Origin: a virus
Lineage: Duplodnaviria > Heunggongvirae > Uroviricota > Caudoviricetes
DNA: 8,657 nucleotides
Virus record (IMG/VR): IMGVR_UViG_2778261299_000009
Direction: 5' to 3' (one strand)
Part shown: piece after piece, positions 27-8,657 of the stretch
How the letters are laid out: every line of letters begins with the position of its first letter
How positions within the stretch are numbered: position 1 is the stretch's first letter
Notes under the pieces: model-generated
Seen by the model: only the letters and a program-made list of their open reading frames with translations
Databases searched by the model: none
Told to the model about the DNA's origin: nothing
Program-made: the position numbers and the translations under genes

Positions 27-1875
27 AGTTAACATTACAAGATATAAGTAATGGACGCACTCCCAATTAGTCTATTTAAATCGCCACGAGTTTAACTGAC
101 AACCCATGATCAATTATGAATTGCAACTATTTCTGTAGTCACTTTTGTGGGGACAGTCCACAAAACTGCCAACTTCCGCTTCTTGCTCTTAGCGGACATT
201 AGCATAGGCTATTTACCATAACGCCTCATTACGCGCACCGCCCAGACTGACTCAGCGCGTTTCTGGCATATCCCCGGTAAAACAAGTAACAAACCACCCG
301 AAAATGAACACCAGAAACGCGACTTAAGAATCTACCCTATGAATGGATATGCACTCAACCGAATCGATCTTGGTTTCAATCTTTTTTATCGGGATCAGGC
401 TTCTTTTTAGGTAACTTCGGGGGCTTAACTTGCTGATGACTTTGCGTTCGGCGCGTAAGCCAGGGATGGTCAGCTTTAGGTTTAACATAGTATTTTGAGC
501 GTAAATCAATACGGGCATTATCCACTCGTTCATGGACACTCTTTTCATCATCCAGTGGTATAGGCTCCGGGCCATCAACATACTTTTCCCAGCCCAGCGC
601 TTTCCCGTCATACAGAACGTTAATTTCACCGTCAAAGTTCTCGCATACAGTAACAACCGAATGCCTAAGTCGATATCCCCGGCCCTCACTGCGTACCTGA
701 AACGCACTGCTTTTGTACTGGAAAGTGAGATTTTTAGACAGAACGCGCTTCGCCTGTAGGCTGAAGATATAACCCAGTTCCTCTTCAGAATGGTGCACAT
801 CAAGATGAGCATTATCAGTAGTACGAGGCGACGTAGCGAACCGGTTGTTATAGGCTTCAATAAAGGTCGGCAACCATGCATTTGCTGTTTCAATATCACT
901 GATATTCTGAAGCCGCATTTCTTTGACCAGCCTGTCCTGTAGTGTCTGATTGGCGCGCTCTACCCGCCCTTTTGCCTGCGGGCTGTTGGCATGGATTGGC
1001 TCGATGCCCAGTGTCTTTATCGCACGAGTGAACTGGGTCAGCTCACCTTCCCGCTCTGGGTTATTTACCCTGAATATACTGTGTCTATCAGAGTAGAGAG
1101 CGAGCGGTACGCCATGATCATTAAGGTAACCCCGGAGGGTTTCCATGTAAGCCCGGGTTGTTTCAGCAGGCACAAAACGCAACGCCATCAACGCACTGGT
1201 GGCATCATCAATGAAAACGATCAGTGTACATCTGGGGCCTCGATTTTCAAACCAGTCATGAGGTGAGCCATCAATCTGGATCAGTTCACCGTAAGATGGT
1301 CGTCGCATGCGGCGTTGATATATACGGGCAATTTTACGACGGCGTTCACGCCATAACCCCTCTTCTATCATCCACTTTCTGAGAGTTTCAACGGATAAAG
1401 ATAAACCGTGTATCTCGCGCAATTTTTCGCACGCAAACGTAGGTCCAAAATCAGCGTAACGGCCTTTGAGGAGTGAAATTACTGTTGCTCTGAATTCAGT
1501 AGAAAAGGAATTATTAGGACGCTTTCCACGTCGGTGGGAAACCAGACCAGAAGGCCCTTCATTTCTATACCGTTGCACCAGACGTTTAACCTGCCGAATA
1601 GAAATGCCAATGCGTGCCGCAGCTTGTTCCTGAATAATCTGAAGTCGGTGGAGTTCCTTATGACTCATCGTAACAGTCTCTTTGATCATGAAAAATCCCC
1701 CAGAGAATTGTCTGGGGACATTTTAGAATGGTTCAAAGGGGACATTACAGCTTGGTGTTAACAATAGCCTGCTTCTCCGTGCCTTTCGGCACGTAAGAGG
1801 CTAACCTACATGTGTCTAGCATGAAATTGGCCTCAGATTAATGTTAAGCGTCTTGCAGGACGCGTAATGTTAACT
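27..1875 (-). mobile_element. Putative insertion sequence carrying an rve-type transposase; boundaries are tentative and set by a 12-bp inverted repeat
   Basis: AGTTAACATTAC at 27-38 matches the reverse complement of GTAATGTTAACT at 1864-1875, bracketing the transposase ORF. No target-site duplication is visible, and the repeat does not extend beyond 12 bp. Confidence 0.3.
376..1689 (-). CDS. DDE transposase with N-terminal HTH and integrase (rve) catalytic core, IS481/ISNCY-like
   Basis: 437-aa ORF with ATG at 1689 preceded by a GGGGGA ribosome-binding site. The N-terminus (GISIRQVKRLVQRY) looks like an HTH, the middle region has the look of a retroviral-integrase-type DDE core, and the C-terminus is a basic KPPKLPKKKP tail. 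Family is assigned from memory, not from a search. Confidence 0.85.
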   Translation of the reverse strand: MIKETVTMSHKELHRLQIIQEQAAARIGISIRQVKRLVQRYRNEGPSGLVSHRRGKRPNNSFSTEFRATVISLLKGRYADFGPTFACEKLREIHGLSLSVETLRKWMIEEGLWRERRRKIARIYQRRMRRPSYGELIQIDGSPHDWFENRGPRCTLIVFIDDATSALMALRFVPAETTRAYMETLRGYLNDHGVPLALYSDRHSIFRVNNPEREGELTQFTRAIKTLGIEPIHANSPQAKGRVERANQTLQDRLVKEMRLQNISDIETANAWLPTFIEAYNNRFATSPRTTDNAHLDVHHSEEELGYIFSLQAKRVLSKNLTFQYKSSAFQVRSEGRGYRLRHSVVTVCENFDGEINVLYDGKALGWEKYVDGPEPIPLDDEKSVHERVDNARIDLRSKYYVKPKADHPWLTRRTQSHQQVKPPKLPKKKPDPDKKD

Positions 1876-2023
1876 GGGGCTTTTCTCTATCTGCCGTTGG
1901 TGTCCATGCCCGAGGCAGATAGCCTCAAGCACCCGCAGTCATTCTACTTAACTAAGATTTCCCCGCAAACCGTTTTTGTCCAGCACAGTAAATATCCAAC
2001 TAAACCAATGGAGTTCGCTGTAT

Positions 2024-2203
2024 TTACCGCCAGTATTCAATGCACATGACCGCCATGAACACCCCTAAAAAAAGGGCATTTATATATCCAAATATTAATA
2101 TCAAAACATCAACTTTTTCCATATACCTTGCTGTGAAGATGATGGGCATACATGATGCGAACAACCAGAACGCAACAAACAAAAACTGCAATGCGTTTTT
2201 CAT
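2024..2203 (-). CDS. Small hydrophobic protein (59 aa from the ATG), probably two transmembrane helices; function unknown
   Basis: The track ORF 2024-2242 begins with GTG; an internal ATG at 2203 is preceded by AGGAGG (GTAGGAGGaataATG). The product MKNALQFLFVAFWLFASCMPIIF...LILIFGYINALFLGVFMAVMCI is strongly hydrophobic, and it sits in an AT-rich island. Confidence 0.35.
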   Translation of the reverse strand: MKNALQFLFVAFWLFASCMPIIFTARYMEKVDVLILIFGYINALFLGVFMAVMCIEYWR

Positions 2204-2457
2204 TATTCCTCCTACAATCAATGTGCAATTACATTTAAACACACCTCAATTTGGCCGGACATATAAATATCTAAACCAGAAAAAATCACTTACATAGCGT
2301 TACAAACTCTTTAGTCTAAAGGTTCATCGTAAAACATTCCCCATACTTATCAGTCCGTTCCGCGCCAGGTAGCTCATTGCCTTATCTGGCAACCTGTAAT
2401 CAGGTTTCCGCTTTTTCAGTTGGCTGGTCGTTTAACCGACATAGTTAATCCATTAAT

Positions 2458-2745
2458 CTAGTTGCCGGATGTTGGTGGATTTTCGCGTTTTAGTTGTTCA
2501 TAAAAGTGCACAGCTTTAACCAGTTCTTCTGATGTAACTGGGACTGGTGAGGCAGTGAATAAGGCCTGAATTTGATAGTTCGGCCTGTCGTTACAATCCT
2601 CTTTTTTCGGTACATATTTCCAGTCACCAGACCACTACTTCCCCTGAAAGTCCGTAACGCCTTTTTTCACGTAGCGATATCGCCATGCCACTGGTTTTGC
2701 TTGCCCCGCCGTTTCATGCCCTTCCTGATAATTAATCTCGCTCAT
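2458..2745 (-). pseudogene. Candidate pseudogene: about 95 codons interrupted by one in-frame TAG
   Basis: ATG at 2745 (GGGG-rich ribosome-binding site) gives MSEINYQEGHETAGQAKPVAWRYRYVKKGVTDFQGK, then TAG, then 58 more sense codons in the same frame (WSGDWKYVPKKEDCNDRPNYQIQALF...ENPPTSGN) with no start codon of their own. Confidence 0.3.
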
Positions 2746-2807
2746 TCATCGCCCCACTCATCACAATATGCTTCGACCGGAGTTTTTCCCGCTTCATAGT
2801 CATCACG

Positions 2808-2933
2808 CTAGGATTCGACATCAGCAGCACTTCCACCGCGTAACTCACCATAGTCCATTAATAGTTCATCCCGCTCTTCAAAACTGATGTTATATTTAGC
2901 TGAACAAAAATCAGCCACTTTGTTCTTCCTCAT
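2808..2933 (-). CDS. Small ORF (41 aa), hypothetical
   Basis: ATG at 2933 and TAG stop at 2808-2810. Product MRKNKVADFCSAKYNISFEERDELLMDYGELRGGSAADVES is protein-like, with a weak ribosome-binding site. It shares the N-terminal MRK-x-K with the neighbouring small ORF. Confidence 0.3.
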   Translation of the reverse strand: MRKNKVADFCSAKYNISFEERDELLMDYGELRGGSAADVES

Positions 2934-2982
2934 CGTCTTTTATTTCGTGGTATGAGTAATTGCAGTAGTTAAAGAAAATTTC

Positions 2983-3093
2983 TTATGCTCCGTCATGAAT
3001 TTCCTCAGGTGTTGCGTCATCGTCCACTTCGAATACATCCTCAAAATCTCCACCAGCTATTCCCGTTTCAATAATAATTTTGAACTTTCGCAT
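2983..3093 (-). CDS. Small acidic ORF (36 aa), hypothetical
   Basis: ATG at 3093. Upstream on the minus strand is AGGAGG, then a CCGCCC-GAAA-GGGCGG hairpin, then TAGTGAA and the ATG. Product MRKFKIIIETGIAGGDFEDVFEVDDDATPEEIHDGA. Confidence 0.35.
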   Translation of the reverse strand: MRKFKIIIETGIAGGDFEDVFEVDDDATPEEIHDGA

Positions 3094-3355
3094 TTCACTA
3101 CCGCCCTTTCGGGCGGCCTCCTGATGTTCTGAGGGTGCAGAAATCCATCCGGTTAAGTATTAAATTTTATTTACAGAACTGAATTTAATTATTCAGATAT
3201 ACGTATCTGTAGCCTTACGAATCTACTCACTGGATGCCTCTTTCATAAAAATAATCCAGTGGGTTTTATCGTTTTTTCCCTGTTCGTTGACAGATAACAG
3301 GTTTTCTGTCTGTCAGTGCCAGAATCTGGCTTACCGGTATTTGCGTTTCATTCCA

Positions 3356-3712
3356 TTAAAAAATCAGAACGCCGTGCGGCCTCAACACCCGAAAGGCTTC
3401 TTTAAATCTCTGTCGCGAATCATCACGCCAGGCATCTTTATTCAGCCGTCCATATTTCTTTCCCATCCAGGCGTTATCACCAACACTCTCAAGATGCGGA
3501 GGGTCTAATACAACCATCGAAAAAGATGCGTCTGCAAATGATAATGCACGAAAATCTGCGATAATGTCAGGGCTGATAATCAAGCGTCTCCCATTGCGTA
3601 ATGTGTATCCTTCTTTTCTGATATCGCTGAATATCGCCCGTTCGTCAGACTTATCGAACCAGAACATGCGGCTGCCACAGCACATATCAAGAATGGTTGC
3701 CGGTGCACTCAC
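3356..3712 (-). CDS. Minimal DNA methyltransferase (AdoMet-dependent, N6-adenine/N4-cytosine type), 118 aa, possibly truncated
   Basis: Motif I-like LDMCCGSR near the N-terminus and motif IV DPPH about 60 aa later. GTG start overlaps the upstream stop (GTGA coupling). No target-recognition domain follows; 29 sense codons continue in frame after the TAA stop. Confidence 0.7.
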   Translation of the reverse strand: MSAPATILDMCCGSRMFWFDKSDERAIFSDIRKEGYTLRNGRRLIISPDIIADFRALSFADASFSMVVLDPPHLESVGDNAWMGKKYGRLNKDAWRDDSRQRFKEAFRVLRPHGVLIF

Positions 3713-4131
3713 TGCGCCACGTCCTGAAAATTACCCTGATAGAAAGCCAGTATGCGCTGCATAACTTCGCTCTTCCGGCACTCGCGACAGATTATGTTTA
3801 GGCGACTGTCGTAGCGACGTATTTCTCCGTCAGGTGATGACCAGATAAGGTCCGGATCAACCACAGCAGGTTTCTTCACCTTTGCCCTCGAGAGTTTTTT
3901 GCGGGCGTTTTGCCAGTCCTTACGCGCCTGTTCAGAGGGGAATAACCCGTAGCCGGAGTTGTATACATCGCCACTGGCTACCAGCTCTCTGGCAAGAACG
4001 CTCATCAGATATCTAGTCGCACCTGTTTTAGCTTCCAGTTGCCGTAACGTCTCACGGCCGCTCTGGCGCACGAGTTCCACCACCTGCCATTTAATTTTTT
4101 CCCGCTCTTCTTGTGTAAAAACTTTTGCCAC
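3709..4131 (-). CDS. Hypothetical phage early protein (140 aa), possibly DNA-binding
   Basis: GTG start at 4131 preceded by AAGGGGGA. It lies between the replication initiator and the methyltransferase in the same operon. Basic, with a CRECRK motif; I do not recognise a family. Confidence 0.6.
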   Translation of the reverse strand: MAKVFTQEEREKIKWQVVELVRQSGRETLRQLEAKTGATRYLMSVLARELVASGDVYNSGYGLFPSEQARKDWQNARKKLSRAKVKKPAVVDPDLIWSSPDGEIRRYDSRLNIICRECRKSEVMQRILAFYQGNFQDVAQ

Positions 4132-4171
4132 AAGTCCCCCTTAAAATTACCTCATGACCTGAAATCAACAC

Positions 4172-5137
4172 TTATCCTCTGAAACCAGGCGGAATTTCTG
4201 TATCCGGTTCAGAAATATGATTAACACAACGCTGTACAGGTGAACGTCCCAGGCGGATGACCAGTTCGTCCCATTTTTCGCGGAGCTTTGACGGGCTCAT
4301 GATGTTTTTTACCCAGAATGGATCTCGCTGAACCCGACCAAACATTTCGCAAATTTGTCTGTGGCTTCTGCCATCCAGCATCCGCATTGTGCGCACGTCA
4401 TTGGCCCAGGCAGTCCAGTTAGGCTCTTTTGGTCGCATGATCTCGCCATCATCACTGGCTGCCTGTTCGTAGAGACCCACGATCCGCCCCCAGATCCACT
4501 GCGCACACGCCAAATCCTCCCTGCTACCCCACTGGCGTTTTTTCGCACTAAACACAACCGCGTCGGAGTTCCGGGTTAAAAAATCCTGTTCAGTCGTCTG
4601 CGGGTCCGGTTGCGAAGCTTCCGGACGAAAAGTGTTTTTATTCTCTGTAGTAATCTCTGTTGTATTCTCTGTAAGATCATCAGGCCATTTTGACCCGATG
4701 ACATTGGGTCGTTTTGAACCAATGGAGCGTTTCATTTTGACCTCTTCCATCGTGTCATTTTGACCTGATGGAGCGGCGCATTTTGAACCGATGGATTCGC
4801 TCAATTTGCCACCATCTAAAAGCTCGCTCCCATAGTTGATCGTGTAGAAATTGGTCATATCGCGCTTTGATTTATTGAGCTTTTCACAACGCAAAAGCCC
4901 CAGCGTTTTCAGACTTGCAAACGCGCGCTTTAACGTTGACTCTGACCAGAATGGGAACTGTTCCAGCCATTGTTCCGTTGTGTTATAAATCCAGCGAACA
5001 CCATCACATTCCATGCCGGAGTTGGTATCTCTCAACCAGTAGTGCAGTTGTTGCAAAACAATGGCTTCGTTTAAGCCAATTTTCATTGCCAGCTGCGTGT
5101 TTATAACCAGTGGGCGTTCAGCAAAAAGAAGGCTCAT
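4172..5137 (-). CDS. Phage replication initiator, lambda-O-like (replisome organiser)
   Basis: N-terminus MSLLFAERPLVINTQLAMKIGLNEAIVLQQLHYWL is typical of phage replication-initiator N-terminal domains. The middle of the gene encodes a repeated SIGSK peptide produced by the iteron array. I placed the start at ATG 5137; the track's start at 5191 is a TTG. Confidence 0.8.
   Translation of the reverse strand: MSLLFAERPLVINTQLAMKIGLNEAIVLQQLHYWLRDTNSGMECDGVRWIYNTTEQWLEQFPFWSESTLKRAFASLKTLGLLRCEKLNKSKRDMTNFYTINYGSELLDGGKLSESIGSKCAAPSGQNDTMEEVKMKRSIGSKRPNVIGSKWPDDLTENTTEITTENKNTFRPEASQPDPQTTEQDFLTRNSDAVVFSAKKRQWGSREDLACAQWIWGRIVGLYEQAASDDGEIMRPKEPNWTAWANDVRTMRMLDGRSHRQICEMFGRVQRDPFWVKNIMSPSKLREKWDELVIRLGRSPVQRCVNHISEPDTEIPPGFRG
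4642..4672. repeat. Three direct TCTCTGT repeats at 12-bp spacing next to the iterons
   Basis: TCTCTGT at 4642-4648, 4654-4660 and 4666-4672. Confidence 0.35.
4686..4816. repeat. Iteron array (5-6 direct repeats, about 23-bp period) inside the replication initiator gene; putative phage origin
   Basis: CATTTTGAC/ACC-N-GATGG units starting near 4686, 4710, 4733, 4756 and 4779, plus a degenerate unit near 4803; the spacing is about two helical turns. Confidence 0.6.
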
Positions 5138-5639
5138 AATTCCATCCAGCTTTTTGTTGGTATTGCTGTCGATACGCAAGTTTGAAAGCAATTGCTTTTT
5201 CTATAAGTTCGTCAGTTTCACGATCCACTACGGCAGGATCAGCAAAAAGCAGTCCGGACTCCACCACATCGCCATATTCTTTGTTTAACCCGGCGATCAT
5301 GCACGTGATGCTTTTTCCGTCAGTAATTTCACGATACAACCTGAAATCATTAATCCGGATAGCCTCCATAATTGCAGGCACTAGCGCCGTGAACTTTTCA
5401 CGCTTATCCCTGGTGTCGATAGCCTTCCAGCGTTCAAATATCTTCACTCGATTAACGCCAAGCGCTCGCTGATCAATCGCGCCACCTTCATATGTGACAC
5501 GCTGAACATCGATGTTCGGGCGCTCTTTCAAAGCCCAGAATGCTTCAGTGATTAATATCGTCGCCTGCTCCTGTGTCATTCCTGGTCGACATATCCAGGC
5601 ATCCAGAGCCTCACGAGCCTGTTCAGGAGTGATTTTCAT
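5118..5639 (-). CDS. YdaT-like protein (CII-position early regulator, so-called YdaT toxin family)
   Basis: 173 aa with ATG at 5639, immediately downstream of the Cro-like gene. The segment REKFTALVPAIMEAIRINDFRLY resembles the YdaT segment REKIQKLIPAILAILPRELRHRL as I recall it. Confidence 0.65.
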   Translation of the reverse strand: MKITPEQAREALDAWICRPGMTQEQATILITEAFWALKERPNIDVQRVTYEGGAIDQRALGVNRVKIFERWKAIDTRDKREKFTALVPAIMEAIRINDFRLYREITDGKSITCMIAGLNKEYGDVVESGLLFADPAVVDRETDELIEKAIAFKLAYRQQYQQKAGWNYEPSFC

Positions 5640-5853
5640 TGTTCAACCGCCCCGCCCGCTTCGTCTTACGATATTCATCATAAACTTTGGGATCATACTG
5701 AAGCTCCCCGCCAGATGCCTCCTGTAGACGCATCGCGCGACCTTCGGGAACTAAATCCCCTTTCCAGCTATAAAGCGAAGCCAAACGAATACCTGCTGCT
5801 TGTGCAAGTTTTGTTTTTGAACCGAAATACAAAAGAGCGTCAGTTTTAAGCAT
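5623..5853 (-). CDS. dicC: Cro-like (YdaS-family) DNA-binding regulator DicC
   Basis: 76 aa, ATG at 5853 preceded by AAAGGTG. It is divergent from the CI-like repressor, and the sequence matches my recollection of E. coli Qin DicC. Confidence 0.85.
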   Translation of the reverse strand: MLKTDALLYFGSKTKLAQAAGIRLASLYSWKGDLVPEGRAMRLQEASGGELQYDPKVYDEYRKTKRAGRLNNENHS

Positions 5854-5867
5854 TTAAAACACCTTTA

Positions 5868-5887
5868 TTGTTAGTCATAACTAACAA
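5868..5887. promoter_or_regulatory. Operator: perfect 8-4-8 palindrome TTGTTAGT-CATA-ACTAACAA
   Basis: Read directly from the sequence; it sits in the dicC-dicA intergenic region and overlaps the -10/+1 of the predicted dicC promoter. Confidence 0.5.
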
Positions 5888-5913
5888 GATAGATGTTAAC
5901 AAAAACATAGTCA
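5886..5913 (-). promoter_or_regulatory. Putative sigma70 promoter of dicC
   Basis: On the minus strand, -35 TTGACT (5908-5913), 16-nt spacer, -10 TATCTT (5886-5891). Confidence 0.4.
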
Positions 5914-5936
5914 ATACGATTTAGCATTAGCTAACT

Positions 5937-6344
5937 ATGGAAACAAAAAATTTAACTATCGGCGAACGCATCAGGTATCGTCGGAAAAACCTCAAACACA
6001 CCCAAAGGTCTCTTGCTAAAGCCCTGAAAATCTCCCATGTGTCTGTATCACAATGGGAACGGGGTGATAGTGAACCTACAGGGAAGAACCTTTTTGCCCT
6101 CAGCAAAGTATTGCAATGCTCACCAACATGGATTCTATTTGGCGATGAAGACAAGCAACCAACACCACCTGTTGAGAAGCCAGTTGCCTTATCCCCCAAA
6201 GAACTAGAGCTCCTTGAGCTGTTTAATGCACTGCCAGAATCAGAACAGGATACCCAGCTCGCCGAAATGCGAGCTCGAGTAAAAAACTTCAATAAACTCT
6301 TTGAAGAATTACTAAAAGCCCGTCAGCGGACAAATAAAAGATAA
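5937..6344 (+). CDS. dicA: CI-like HTH (XRE family) repressor DicA
   Basis: 135 aa with an N-terminal HTH (LKHTQRSLAKALKISHVSVSQWERG); divergent partner of dicC; matches my recollection of K-12 DicA. Confidence 0.9.
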   Translation: METKNLTIGERIRYRRKNLKHTQRSLAKALKISHVSVSQWERGDSEPTGKNLFALSKVLQCSPTWILFGDEDKQPTPPVEKPVALSPKELELLELFNALPESEQDTQLAEMRARVKNFNKLFEELLKARQRTNKR

Positions 6345-6405
6345 CATCATCAATGAGTTATCTTTTACCACATCAATTATGTTAGCTATAGCATACAAAA
6401 TCACT

Positions 6406-6434
6406 TGACCGATATGTTAGTCATGGCTAATCTT
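6406..6434 (+). promoter_or_regulatory. Putative dicB-operon promoter with an operator-like site
   Basis: -35 TTGACC (6406-6411), 17-nt spacer, weak -10 TAATCT (6429-6434). TGTTAGTCATGGCTAATC at 6415-6432 matches the intergenic operator at 14 of 18 positions. Confidence 0.35.
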
Positions 6435-6510
6435 GTTTGCATCAACACACCGCACGGTGTTCTCAGCAAACAGTTCCGCTACCCCAGCGTTAAGGGGAAA
6501 TGAGGTCAGC

Positions 6511-6666
6511 ATGGATACTATCGATCTTGGCAACAACGAATCTCTGGTGTACGGCGTGTTTCCAAACCAGGACGGCACGTTCACCGCAATGACGTATACC
6601 AAAAGCAAAACGTTTAAAACCGAAAATGGTGCCCGTCGCTGGCTGGAAAGAAACTCAGGTGAGTGA
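6511..6666 (+). CDS. ydfA: YdfA-like small protein (51 aa, DUF1391-type)
   Basis: ATG at 6511 preceded by TGAGGT; the track ORF 6433-6666 starts at a TTG. Product MDTIDLGNNESLVYGVFPNQDGTFTAMTYTKSKTFKTENGARRWLERNSGE. Confidence 0.8.
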   Translation: MDTIDLGNNESLVYGVFPNQDGTFTAMTYTKSKTFKTENGARRWLERNSGE

Positions 6667-6667
6667 T

Positions 6668-6796
6668 ATGGATTTCGACACAATCATGGAAAAGGCTTAC
6701 GAAGAATACTTCGAAGGCCTTGCCGAAGGCGAAGAAGCTCTCAGCTTCAGTGAGTTTAAACAGGCGCTTTCCAGTTCGGCAAAATCTAACGGCTGA
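6668..6796 (+). CDS. ydfB: YdfB-like small protein (42 aa)
   Basis: Below the track's length threshold. ATG at 6668, preceded by AGGTGAG, lies just after the ydfA stop. Product MDFDTIMEKAYEEYFEGLAEGEEALSFSEFKQALSSSAKSNG. Confidence 0.6.
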   Translation: MDFDTIMEKAYEEYFEGLAEGEEALSFSEFKQALSSSAKSNG

Positions 6797-6825
6797 TAAG
6801 CGAAACAGCACCGCGAGGAATCAGT

Positions 6826-7044
6826 ATGCAGAAACGAGAACCCGTCATCATCGCGCCAGACTATACCGATGATGAACTTTATGAGTGGATGCGCCAGAAA
6901 ATTAATGCAGCGCAGGATCTGAAATGGGCTAATGAAGCCAGGGCTAAGCAGGCTGAAAATCTGTCCGCTCTGGAGCAGGATATCACCAATCTGGAAAAAG
7001 CAGCGGCATTAAGCATTGCCAGAATGATTACATACCCGCGTTAG
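6826..7044 (+). CDS. ydfC: YdfC-like protein (72 aa)
   Basis: ATG at 6826 preceded by GAGGAA; the product has a coiled-coil-like C-terminus. Confidence 0.8.
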   Translation: MQKREPVIIAPDYTDDELYEWMRQKINAAQDLKWANEARAKQAENLSALEQDITNLEKAAALSIARMITYPR

Positions 7045-7384
7045 TAGCTAATCAACAAAGCTAAGGTTAGTAATTAAGGAGTTCTCCACGGGTGAGGTGG
7101 AGTGCGTGCGCCGGACACGGGTGCGCATCCGGAACTGACAGTTTACTGAAAGGATATTTCCCTGAAAAGTCAGACCATAACGCGAAAGCGCACGGCGAGG
7201 TAGCTGGTTCATAGATAGCCTGTCGTTAAATTTTCGTCGACCGTGCGCTTCCGGTTGTGGCAACCCGCGAAATGGCGCGGCGGTAAGTATGGCGGGGTTA
7301 TTCCTTCCCCGTTGAGGACACCGGGTTGTCAGGTTGACCATACGCTTAAGTGACAACCCCGCTGCAACGCCCTCTGTTATCAAT

Positions 7385-7442
7385 TTTCTGGTGACGTTTG
7401 GCGGTATCAGTTTTACTCCGTGACTGCTCTGCCGCCCTTTTT
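7385..7442 (+). ncRNA. dicF: DicF small RNA (ftsZ-targeting sRNA of Qin-type prophages)
   Basis: TTTCTGGTGACGTTTGGCGGTATCAGTTTTACTCCGTGACTGCTCTGCCGCCCTTTTT matches DicF as I recall it, and it lies between ydfC and dicB as in K-12. GGCGG/CCGCC stem plus a T-run at the 3' end. Confidence 0.7.
7399..7442 (+). terminator. Intrinsic terminator-like 3' end of DicF
   Basis: GC stem GGCGG (7400-7404) pairing with CCGCC (7432-7436), followed by TTTTT (7438-7442). Confidence 0.45.
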
Positions 7443-7611
7443 AAAGTGAATTTTGTGATGTGGTGAATGCGGCTGAGCGCACGCGGAACAGTTAAAACCA
7501 AAAACAGTGTTATGGGTGGATTCTCTGTATCCGGCGTTAATTGTTAACTGGTTAACGTCACCTGGAGGCACCAGGCACTGCATCACAAAATTCATTGTTG
7601 AGGACGCGATA

Positions 7612-8657
<1,046 letters not shown>

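Follow-up and report, generated by a model that had tools for sequence, protein, structure and literature searches.

A probable two-helix membrane protein gene beside a severed hok leader in a Qin-type prophage

The 8,657-nucleotide (nt) stretch of DNA analysed here over its whole length (the window; IMG/VR virus record IMGVR_UViG_2778261299_000009) is a Qin-type lambdoid prophage of Escherichia coli or Shigella. Its minus strand carries an open reading frame (ORF) of 59 amino acids (aa) which, judging from a paralogue of the same length, is very probably a genuine gene. The protein belongs to an unnamed, E. coli-restricted, two-member family that has been missed by RefSeq; we call the lineage found in the window family A and its paralogue family B. 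A preliminary description, made from the sequence alone, had pointed to this ORF, its ribosome-binding site, the AT-rich stretch around it and a hairpin downstream. Taken jointly, we consider it likely that the ORF is a real gene, that its product is a membrane protein, that it is cargo of the early operon and that the hairpin forms part of the leader of a hok locus.

2024–2203 (including the stop codon), minus strand: the 59-aa ORF of family A with two hydrophobic helices, from the ORF list and the same-length paralogue
2213–2208, minus strand: Shine-Dalgarno sequence AGGAGG, 4 nt before the ATG

The ORF runs from the ATG at 2203–2201 to the TAA at 2026–2024 and its product is MKNALQFLFVAFWLFASCMPIIFTARYMEKVDVLILIFGYINALFLGVFMAVMCIEYWR. 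The grand average of hydropathy (GRAVY) of the protein is 1.27, with hydrophobic stretches at approximately residues 4–25 and 31–55. This confirms the coordinates, length and strong hydrophobicity that had been described, and likewise the AGGAGG ribosome-binding site, which reads AGGGGG in many alleles (2210 A>G). A longer version of 72 aa, beginning at a GTG at 2242, is without a well-spaced ribosome-binding site.

Coding evidence from a paralogous family

The evidence for a gene comes primarily from an exhaustive phmmer (HMMER) search of 1.84 billion representatives, which found a second E. coli family (family B; P0037 and P0042). Its members are exactly 59 aa long and align with family A over residues 1–59 at 41% identity (E 1.2e-8). 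The coding DNA of the two families is 59% identical with zero indels, and the mismatches at codon positions 1, 2 and 3 number 25, 17 and 31 respectively (permutation P = 0.006). The Nei-Gojobori method yields a nonsynonymous divergence (dN) of 0.45 and a synonymous divergence (dS) of about 2.3, a ratio of about 0.19. Of all six reading frames, only this one is open in both families. Residues invariant between them include W13, S17, C18, P20, I21, I22, T24, F38, G39, N42, A43, L44, E56, W58 and R59, and family B has a ribosome-binding site of its own, AGGGA, 7 nt before the ATG. By these sequence comparisons the coding status of the ORF is well supported, and the small two-helix protein gene of the preliminary description is most likely genuine.

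Among 5426 complete E. coli genomes, family A occurs in 1568 at an identity of at least 95% and family B in 1045 with one copy each, that is in about 29% and 19%, the carriers including CFT073, ST131 and Shigella. Intact copies of the ORF are carried by, among others, CFT073, ATCC 8739 and ECOR13 with PhiR42_1. At the ttcA/Rac attachment site, the family B locus (L305 6001–6180 with its flanks; L306) is what remains of a decayed prophage, and the gene order there is dbpA, ttcA, integrase fragment, ORF, sitD fragments, uspF and ompN. Within this remnant family B is the sole intact ORF, integrase, hok and sitD all being fragments. Starting 55 nt past the family B stop codon are 62 nt of hok coding sequence with 81% identity, and the ORF must therefore have adjoined hok before the two lineages separated. 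No phage with family B in an intact context was found.

The homology search that had been proposed thus produced one 59-aa family and no named one: Pfam (E ≤ 1), PHROG, NCBIfam and PADLOC gave no match for the ORF or for its paralogue. Other pipelines label the deposited ORF ‘hypothetical protein’ or ‘membrane protein’, and a full-text literature search with the peptide sequences returned no match. A preprint on ribosome profiling (Ribo-seq) of CFT073 lists 15 intergenic small membrane ORFs (bioRxiv 10.64898/2026.09.28.754932). If translated, the ORF would be one more small membrane protein overlooked by standard annotation, a modest find of a familiar kind that does not overturn current understanding.

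Recent variation, predicted topology and rival explanations

Several observations weigh against the reading as a genuine membrane protein gene of the early operon. The deep comparison is that of a single pair of families, and neither a profile search nor scans of genome, viral and metagenome collections found a third, intermediate lineage. The NCBI Prokaryotic Genome Annotation Pipeline (PGAP) makes no call over family A or family B among the RefSeq records listed, and we found no expression, proteomic or phenotypic data for the ORF. A consensus scan of positions 1700–2700 recognised no promoter for it, and a relaxed scan only an 8/12 site at 2353–2326. Foldseek comparison with the BFVD viral models returned nothing significant (best match E 0.94), so the mechanism can only be inferred. 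Moreover, polymorphism within the families gives no sign of purifying selection on the protein. In family A (223 loci, 35 haplotypes), 13 of the variable sites are nonsynonymous and none is synonymous, and 4 indel alleles occur as well; family B contributes another 4 nonsynonymous sites and again no synonymous one. Given that about 19% of sites are synonymous, a count of 0 in 17 would have a P of about 0.03 even under neutrality. At the same loci, DUF977 shows 64 synonymous versus 30 nonsynonymous sites and the replication gene 97 versus 45. In the most divergent copy (L087), several single-base indels break the frame and the Shine-Dalgarno sequence is destroyed, with hok intact. Finally, similarity to the ORF was the criterion by which many of the loci had been gathered, and this ascertainment bias may cause part of its low diversity.

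These data can be read as those of a relic, in which an ancestral phage membrane protein gene is now drifting neutrally and does nothing in cryptic Qin-type prophages or in the ttcA remnant. We regard this as possible but doubtful. The 17 nonsynonymous versus 0 synonymous polymorphisms, the several frameshift alleles and the decay of L087 all speak for it, as do an IS1 element in ETEC4089, located 82–96 nt before the start of the ORF (in all, eight of the genomes listed have a match that is split by IS1), and the truncations of the ORF at insertion sequence (IS) junctions in the protein database. The same genomes carry the adjoining nin genes as pseudogenes, and family B is without an upstream operon or promoter. 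However, the ORF is about half as variable as its immediate flanks, with 17 variable sites in 180 compared with 40 in 182. It is intact in about 96% of the family A loci sampled and in all 23 full-length family B loci, even though hok, integrase and sitD around the latter are wrecked, and it is present in the inducible or complete phages PhiR42_1 and vB_EcoS-813R8. The changes within family A are mostly conservative (A16V, V31I, I37M, L44I), and the common family A alleles M37 and H40 are the residues of family B. Conservation in related prophages and an undisrupted frame in close homologues had been named beforehand as decisive for the ORF; it is conserved in related prophages and the paralogue keeps the frame, whereas L087 and about 3% of the copies sampled have a disrupted frame. 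The gene appears to have been shaped by selection in phages, and its present-day role in cryptic prophages is uncertain.

AlphaFold2, run on a shallow alignment, predicts helices at residues 2–26 and 28–58 with a mean predicted local distance difference test (pLDDT) score of 74. The best reading of the protein is a two-helix hairpin in the inner membrane, with a small lipoprotein formed via Ser17-Cys18 as a possible alternative. An N-in/C-in topology is predicted because of the charge distribution, since positive residues are found at the N-terminus (K2 of family A, R2K3 of family B) and the inter-helix loop is neutral to acidic. Several polar or small residues within the helices are invariant between the families, namely S17, C18, P20 and T24 in helix 1 and G39 and N42 in helix 2. 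The conservation of these Ser, Cys, Pro and Thr residues in the first helix and of Gly and Asn in the second suggests a role in helix packing or oligomerisation.

We hypothesise that the hairpin would insert into the inner membrane, where the conserved face of Asn, Gly, Ser and Thr could mediate self-association and perturb the membrane or its potential. Alternatively, this face might bind a host membrane protein. In either case, the protein would act as a host-takeover or exclusion factor beside the membrane toxin Hok. Such a membrane-perturbing or host-modulating mechanism is put forward tentatively, as one possibility. A comparable architecture is known from GhoT and OrtT, E. coli membrane toxins of about 57 aa with two transmembrane helices. 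The 59-aa protein is likewise enterobacterial, of near-equal size and predicted to be a helical hairpin with almost no soluble part, and membrane damage or loss of the proton-motive force would be a plausible shared action. However, there is no sequence relationship (no match in Pfam at E ≤ 1 or in PADLOC) and no adjoining gene for a GhoS-like antitoxin, and the ORF is cargo of a prophage early operon. Small two-helix inner-membrane proteins encoded by phages also include the pinholins and class II holins (e.g. S21 of phage 21) as well as phage exclusion proteins like T4 Imm, and the 59-aa protein, also small and phage-encoded, is predicted to share this build.

The invariant Ser17-Cys18 pair gives rise to a different proposal, that of a prolipoprotein. 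Here, residues 1–17 would be a signal for signal peptidase II, Cys18 would be lipidated, and a 42-aa mature peptide at the periplasmic face would be held in the inner membrane by the C-terminal helix. The pair, followed by Pro20, has been retained across families of only 41% identity. A lipobox rule is laid down in PROSITE PDOC00013 and DOLOP; its PROSITE-style form (Cys at 18, K/R within the first 7 residues) is satisfied by 27 of 29 full-length members, and V-I-S-C of family B fits the strict [LVI][ASTVI][GAS]C box. The short precursor, the positive N-terminus and the lipobox-like ...SC at residue 18 in both families are also reminiscent of the entericidins, which are small lipoproteins. Nevertheless, the Phe at –3 in family A is unusual, and Cys18 is followed by 7 more hydrophobic residues, as in an ordinary 22-residue transmembrane helix. 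AlphaFold2 predicts a single continuous helix over residues 2–26. The lipobox pattern is prone to false positives in membrane proteins and no lipoprotein family was matched. Unlike the entericidins, the 59-aa protein remains hydrophobic after the Cys and then has a second transmembrane helix. We consider a lipoprotein somewhat unlikely and prefer the membrane hairpin.

It is improbable that the ORF is spurious, i.e. that the island in front of hok is AT-rich non-coding DNA (a spacer or a promoter region) whose T-rich strand happens to read as a hydrophobic peptide. T-rich DNA does translate into hydrophobic residues, and the lack of a PGAP call in the RefSeq records listed, the choice of the opposite strand by two phage annotations and the zero synonymous polymorphisms would all fit. 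The AT-rich island that had been described exists, with a GC fraction of 0.36–0.38 (0.375 at 2001–2200, 0.355 at 2101–2300) versus about 0.43–0.47 on both sides, but it does not stand alone in the window, other stretches such as 5801–6000 (0.325) being as AT-rich. Within the ORF, T makes up 38, 52 and 23% and GC 34, 28 and 50% of codon positions 1, 2 and 3. Since the AT-richness is concentrated at positions 1 and 2, the island largely reflects the encoded amino acids. Among 3000 dinucleotide shuffles of the 330-nt AT-rich module, 469 contained an ORF of at least 59 aa starting with ATG. A GRAVY of 1.2 or more was reached by only 9 of those, and two distinct hydrophobic segments were present in only 6, placing the frequency of such an ORF at only 0.2–0.3%. 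The T content of 52% at position 2 versus 23% at position 3, the same-length and indel-free paralogue at 59% DNA identity, in which position 3 is least and position 2 most conserved, the dN/dS of about 0.19 and the closure of every other frame in family B equally oppose a chance origin. On the plus strand, the 85-aa ORF at 2040–2297, annotated in two phage records (as ‘hornerin’ in one of them), was itself rejected as spurious because stop codons interrupt it in 66 and 12 loci, and family B has two of them.

A membrane toxin had also been suggested, and in its type I form, under control of a plus-strand antisense RNA, this has very little in its favour. The protein, at 59 aa and very hydrophobic, is within the usual size range (under about 60 aa), and the ORF adjoins a genuine type I locus, hok/sok. 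However, the region of the ORF yielded neither a promoter nor a terminator for an antisense transcript, nor an RNA family: Rfam has no match over 1977–2306 at E ≤ 1, the sole promoter-like site on the plus strand is an 8/12 site with a poor –10, and the sole terminator-like hairpin there (2391–2416) is weak and within chance expectation. At the sequence level, the proposed search of the plus strand for a promoter and antisense RNA gave nothing credible, and the plus-strand ORF is not conserved. Known type I toxins usually have one helix. Proteins of the Hok/Gef type resemble the 59-aa protein in being small, hydrophobic and prophage-encoded and reside in the inner membrane, as is predicted for it; in families A and B alike, hok is the next gene downstream of the ORF. 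Whereas Hok is a one-helix protein of about 50 aa whose mRNA has a folded leader and which is accompanied by mok and the Sok antisense RNA, the ORF encodes two helices, is without such RNA apparatus and has no Hok family match in Pfam; the leader match at 1934–1763 (RF01794) is downstream of the ORF and does not overlap it.

The holin-like peptide of the preliminary description, acting in lysis as a class II holin, pinholin or antiholin, is hardly tenable: although two hydrophobic helices, a size close to that of pinholins and one holin among the weak fold matches (E 3.0) would suit it, the ORF is located in the early region upstream of the Q antiterminator gene, between the replication/nin genes and hok-DUF968-rusA-Q, with no adjoining endolysin downstream of Q, the C-terminal tail consists of 4 residues (EYWR) and is not the charged tail of a pinholin, there is a single N-terminal Met and no dual start, and neither a Pfam or PHROG holin family match nor a significant fold match was obtained.

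Prophage context and expression

about 1977–2306: AT-rich module holding only the 59-aa ORF, absent from most other prophage hok loci
5623–5853, minus strand: dicC
5937–6344, plus strand: dicA
7386–7437: DicF RNA (Rfam, 76.7 bits)

Besides these genes, the window contains ydfA/B/C and dicB/ydfD. The 601 bases around the ORF are 100% identical to many E. coli chromosomes. By contrast, Qin of K-12 MG1655 (L358, MG1655 1641000–1651000) aligns only to positions 1–560 and 5360–7841, and 561–5359, including the ORF, have therefore been lost there. These 4.8 kilobases comprise most of the ISNCY transposase, the hok leader and the small ORF, and span the nin genes, the methyltransferase, DUF977 and the replication gene.

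In the intact relatives that were compared (the CFT073 prophage and the phages vB_EcoS-813R8 and PhiR42_1), the genes follow each other on one strand in the order cro-like gene, ydaT-like gene, replication gene, DUF977, methyltransferase, small nin genes, 59-aa ORF, hok, small gene, DUF968, rusA and Q. The ORF is accessory cargo in the nin-type region of Qin-like lambdoid prophages, co-oriented with the early rightward operon that starts with dicC. This agrees with the prophage cargo anticipated earlier, as the module that carries the ORF is present in some related phages and absent from others. A terminator on the minus strand flanking the ORF was not found. Since the ORF has neither this nor a recognisable promoter of its own, transcription would most likely occur by read-through from the early operon in lytic development, with translation from its own AGGAGG.

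The AT-rich module is confined to this lineage; it was detected in 37 of 108 distinct upstream sequences anchored on hok and is absent from the other 71. The hok loci of Shiga toxin (Stx) phages have only positions 1850–1980, i.e. the hok promoter and leader, in common with the window, and other phages only 2307–2449. A one-ORF, AT-rich insert between conserved lambdoid genes, with boundaries near 1977 and 2306 and a patchy occurrence among homologous phages, is reminiscent of phage morons. However, a classic moron brings along a promoter and a terminator and is active in the prophage state, and neither element was found for the ORF. The module looks like a target of insertion sequences. In ETEC4089 (H5; L359), IS1 is inserted within it at window positions of about 2285–2299, and seven more listed genomes (H1–H4, H6–H8) show the same split match together with an IS1 annotation. 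The protein database also contains several forms of the ORF that are truncated at IS junctions, for example P0038.

The conserved position next to hok suggests a functional link between the two genes, but common descent and the dense packing of small genes in nin regions explain the adjacency equally well. The 59-aa protein and Hok might constitute a conserved two-gene membrane module, in which the small protein may tune, shield against or cooperate with Hok, and within such a module it might be a lipid-anchored, single-pass ‘mini-lipoprotein’ kept in the inner membrane. We consider this module quite unlikely. As the ORF adjoins the locus of a membrane toxin in prophages, it is a candidate, inexpensive to study, for a factor in host takeover, exclusion or modulation of the toxin.

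Other prophage hok loci (L208–L303) have unrelated small transmembrane ORFs in the slot that the 59-aa ORF occupies here, about 100 nt upstream of the hok promoter, ending just before the hok –35. Examples are ORFs ending in ...VYCLVVFLMDRLGN and ...AIYCLVIVLMEHLSD and, with a GGAGG ribosome-binding site, MTWPEAFTTVGIALAVALVVYSICRWG*. These ORFs had no significant PHROG match.

The hok leader and the ISNCY-type insertion

1968–1941, minus strand: likely hok promoter TTGCGG-16 nt-TAGAAT, from the relaxed scan, 7 nt from the 5' end of the leader
1934–1763, minus strand: hok-type mRNA 5' leader, Rfam RF01794 ‘sok’ in hok-sense orientation
1887–1922, minus strand: 9-base-pair (bp) hairpin, which forms the inner stem of helix 1 in the hok leader and is paired in the Rfam consensus
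1764–1778, minus strand: GGAGAAGCAGGCTAT, the 15 nt with which the hok leader ends, present in a second copy at the far end of the insert
1736–1763, minus strand: terminal inverted repeat of the insert, TGTTAACACCAAGCTGTAATGTCCCCTT, matching the other end in L001 at 21 of 28 positions
376–1689, minus strand: ISNCY-family transposase ORF, from the ORF list and named by PGAP in identical genomes

The hairpin noted downstream of the ORF exists, but it is unrelated to the ORF and belongs to a hok-type leader. Its arms on the minus strand, CTATCTGCC (1922–1914) and GGCAGATAG (1895–1887), start 101 nt past the stop codon, and the variants 1915 C>T and 1890 A>G retain G-U pairs. A function as terminator of the ORF was rejected, as no T-run follows and the stem is paired in the hok leader model. 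The RF01794 match covers the full model (1–157) and, with 104.1 bits (E 2e-23), is well above the gathering score of 59. Because the model ends in the hok AUG and the hok coding sequence directly follows in intact relatives, the match represents the leader of the hok mRNA in sense orientation. An identical promoter sequence precedes intact hok loci, and on this comparison TTGCGG-16-TAGAAT is the likely hok promoter.

The truncated leader is strongly structured (folding z = –4.56). Its minimum free energy fold prefers an alternative 5' hairpin at 1906–1932 on the minus strand (GUGCUUGAGGC/GCCUCGGGCAU) over the stem of the Rfam consensus. Alternative folds and metastable 5' structures have been described for hok mRNA, and the alternative hairpin is reminiscent of these.

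Homology to intact hok loci ends at 1764, after the ‘AT’ of the start codon. An ISNCY-type insertion at this point (1764/1763) severed the leader from the hok coding sequence. In a full Qin-type prophage (L001; 2640–5929), 3,274 bp with the ISNCY transposase, ydfW, flxA, ydfV, relB and relE lie between the leader and the coding sequence of hokD. Imperfect terminal inverted repeats of 28 bp (21/28) delimit this block, which is flanked by the 15-bp direct repeat GGAGAAGCAGGCTAT. The hok locus looks as if it had been split by a single transposition into its translation-initiation region. Such an insertion would explain why hokD is located behind relBE without a leader, mok or sok of its own. Read in this way, the Qin-type prophage retains the promoter and leader half of a hok locus, the coding half of which is hokD behind relBE.

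Antisense to the hok leader and promoter, a plus-strand ORF of 60 aa (1867–2049) matches PHROG 7511 with an E of 1.7e-32. Owing to this antisense position, we read it as an annotation artefact that has been carried into PHROG 7511, which was probably built from mis-called ORFs.

Two further observations concern the dicB end of the window. Between DicF and dicB, the plus strand gives a sub-threshold Rfam match to STnc100 at 7435–7644 (34.4 bits versus a gathering score of 47). Identity to MG1655 Qin stops at 7841, within ydfD, and is followed on the minus strand by a 244-aa ORF (7908–8642) with the P-loop GPSGVGKT. This ORF looks like an IstB helper of the IS21 type, and ydfD is therefore probably interrupted by an insertion sequence.

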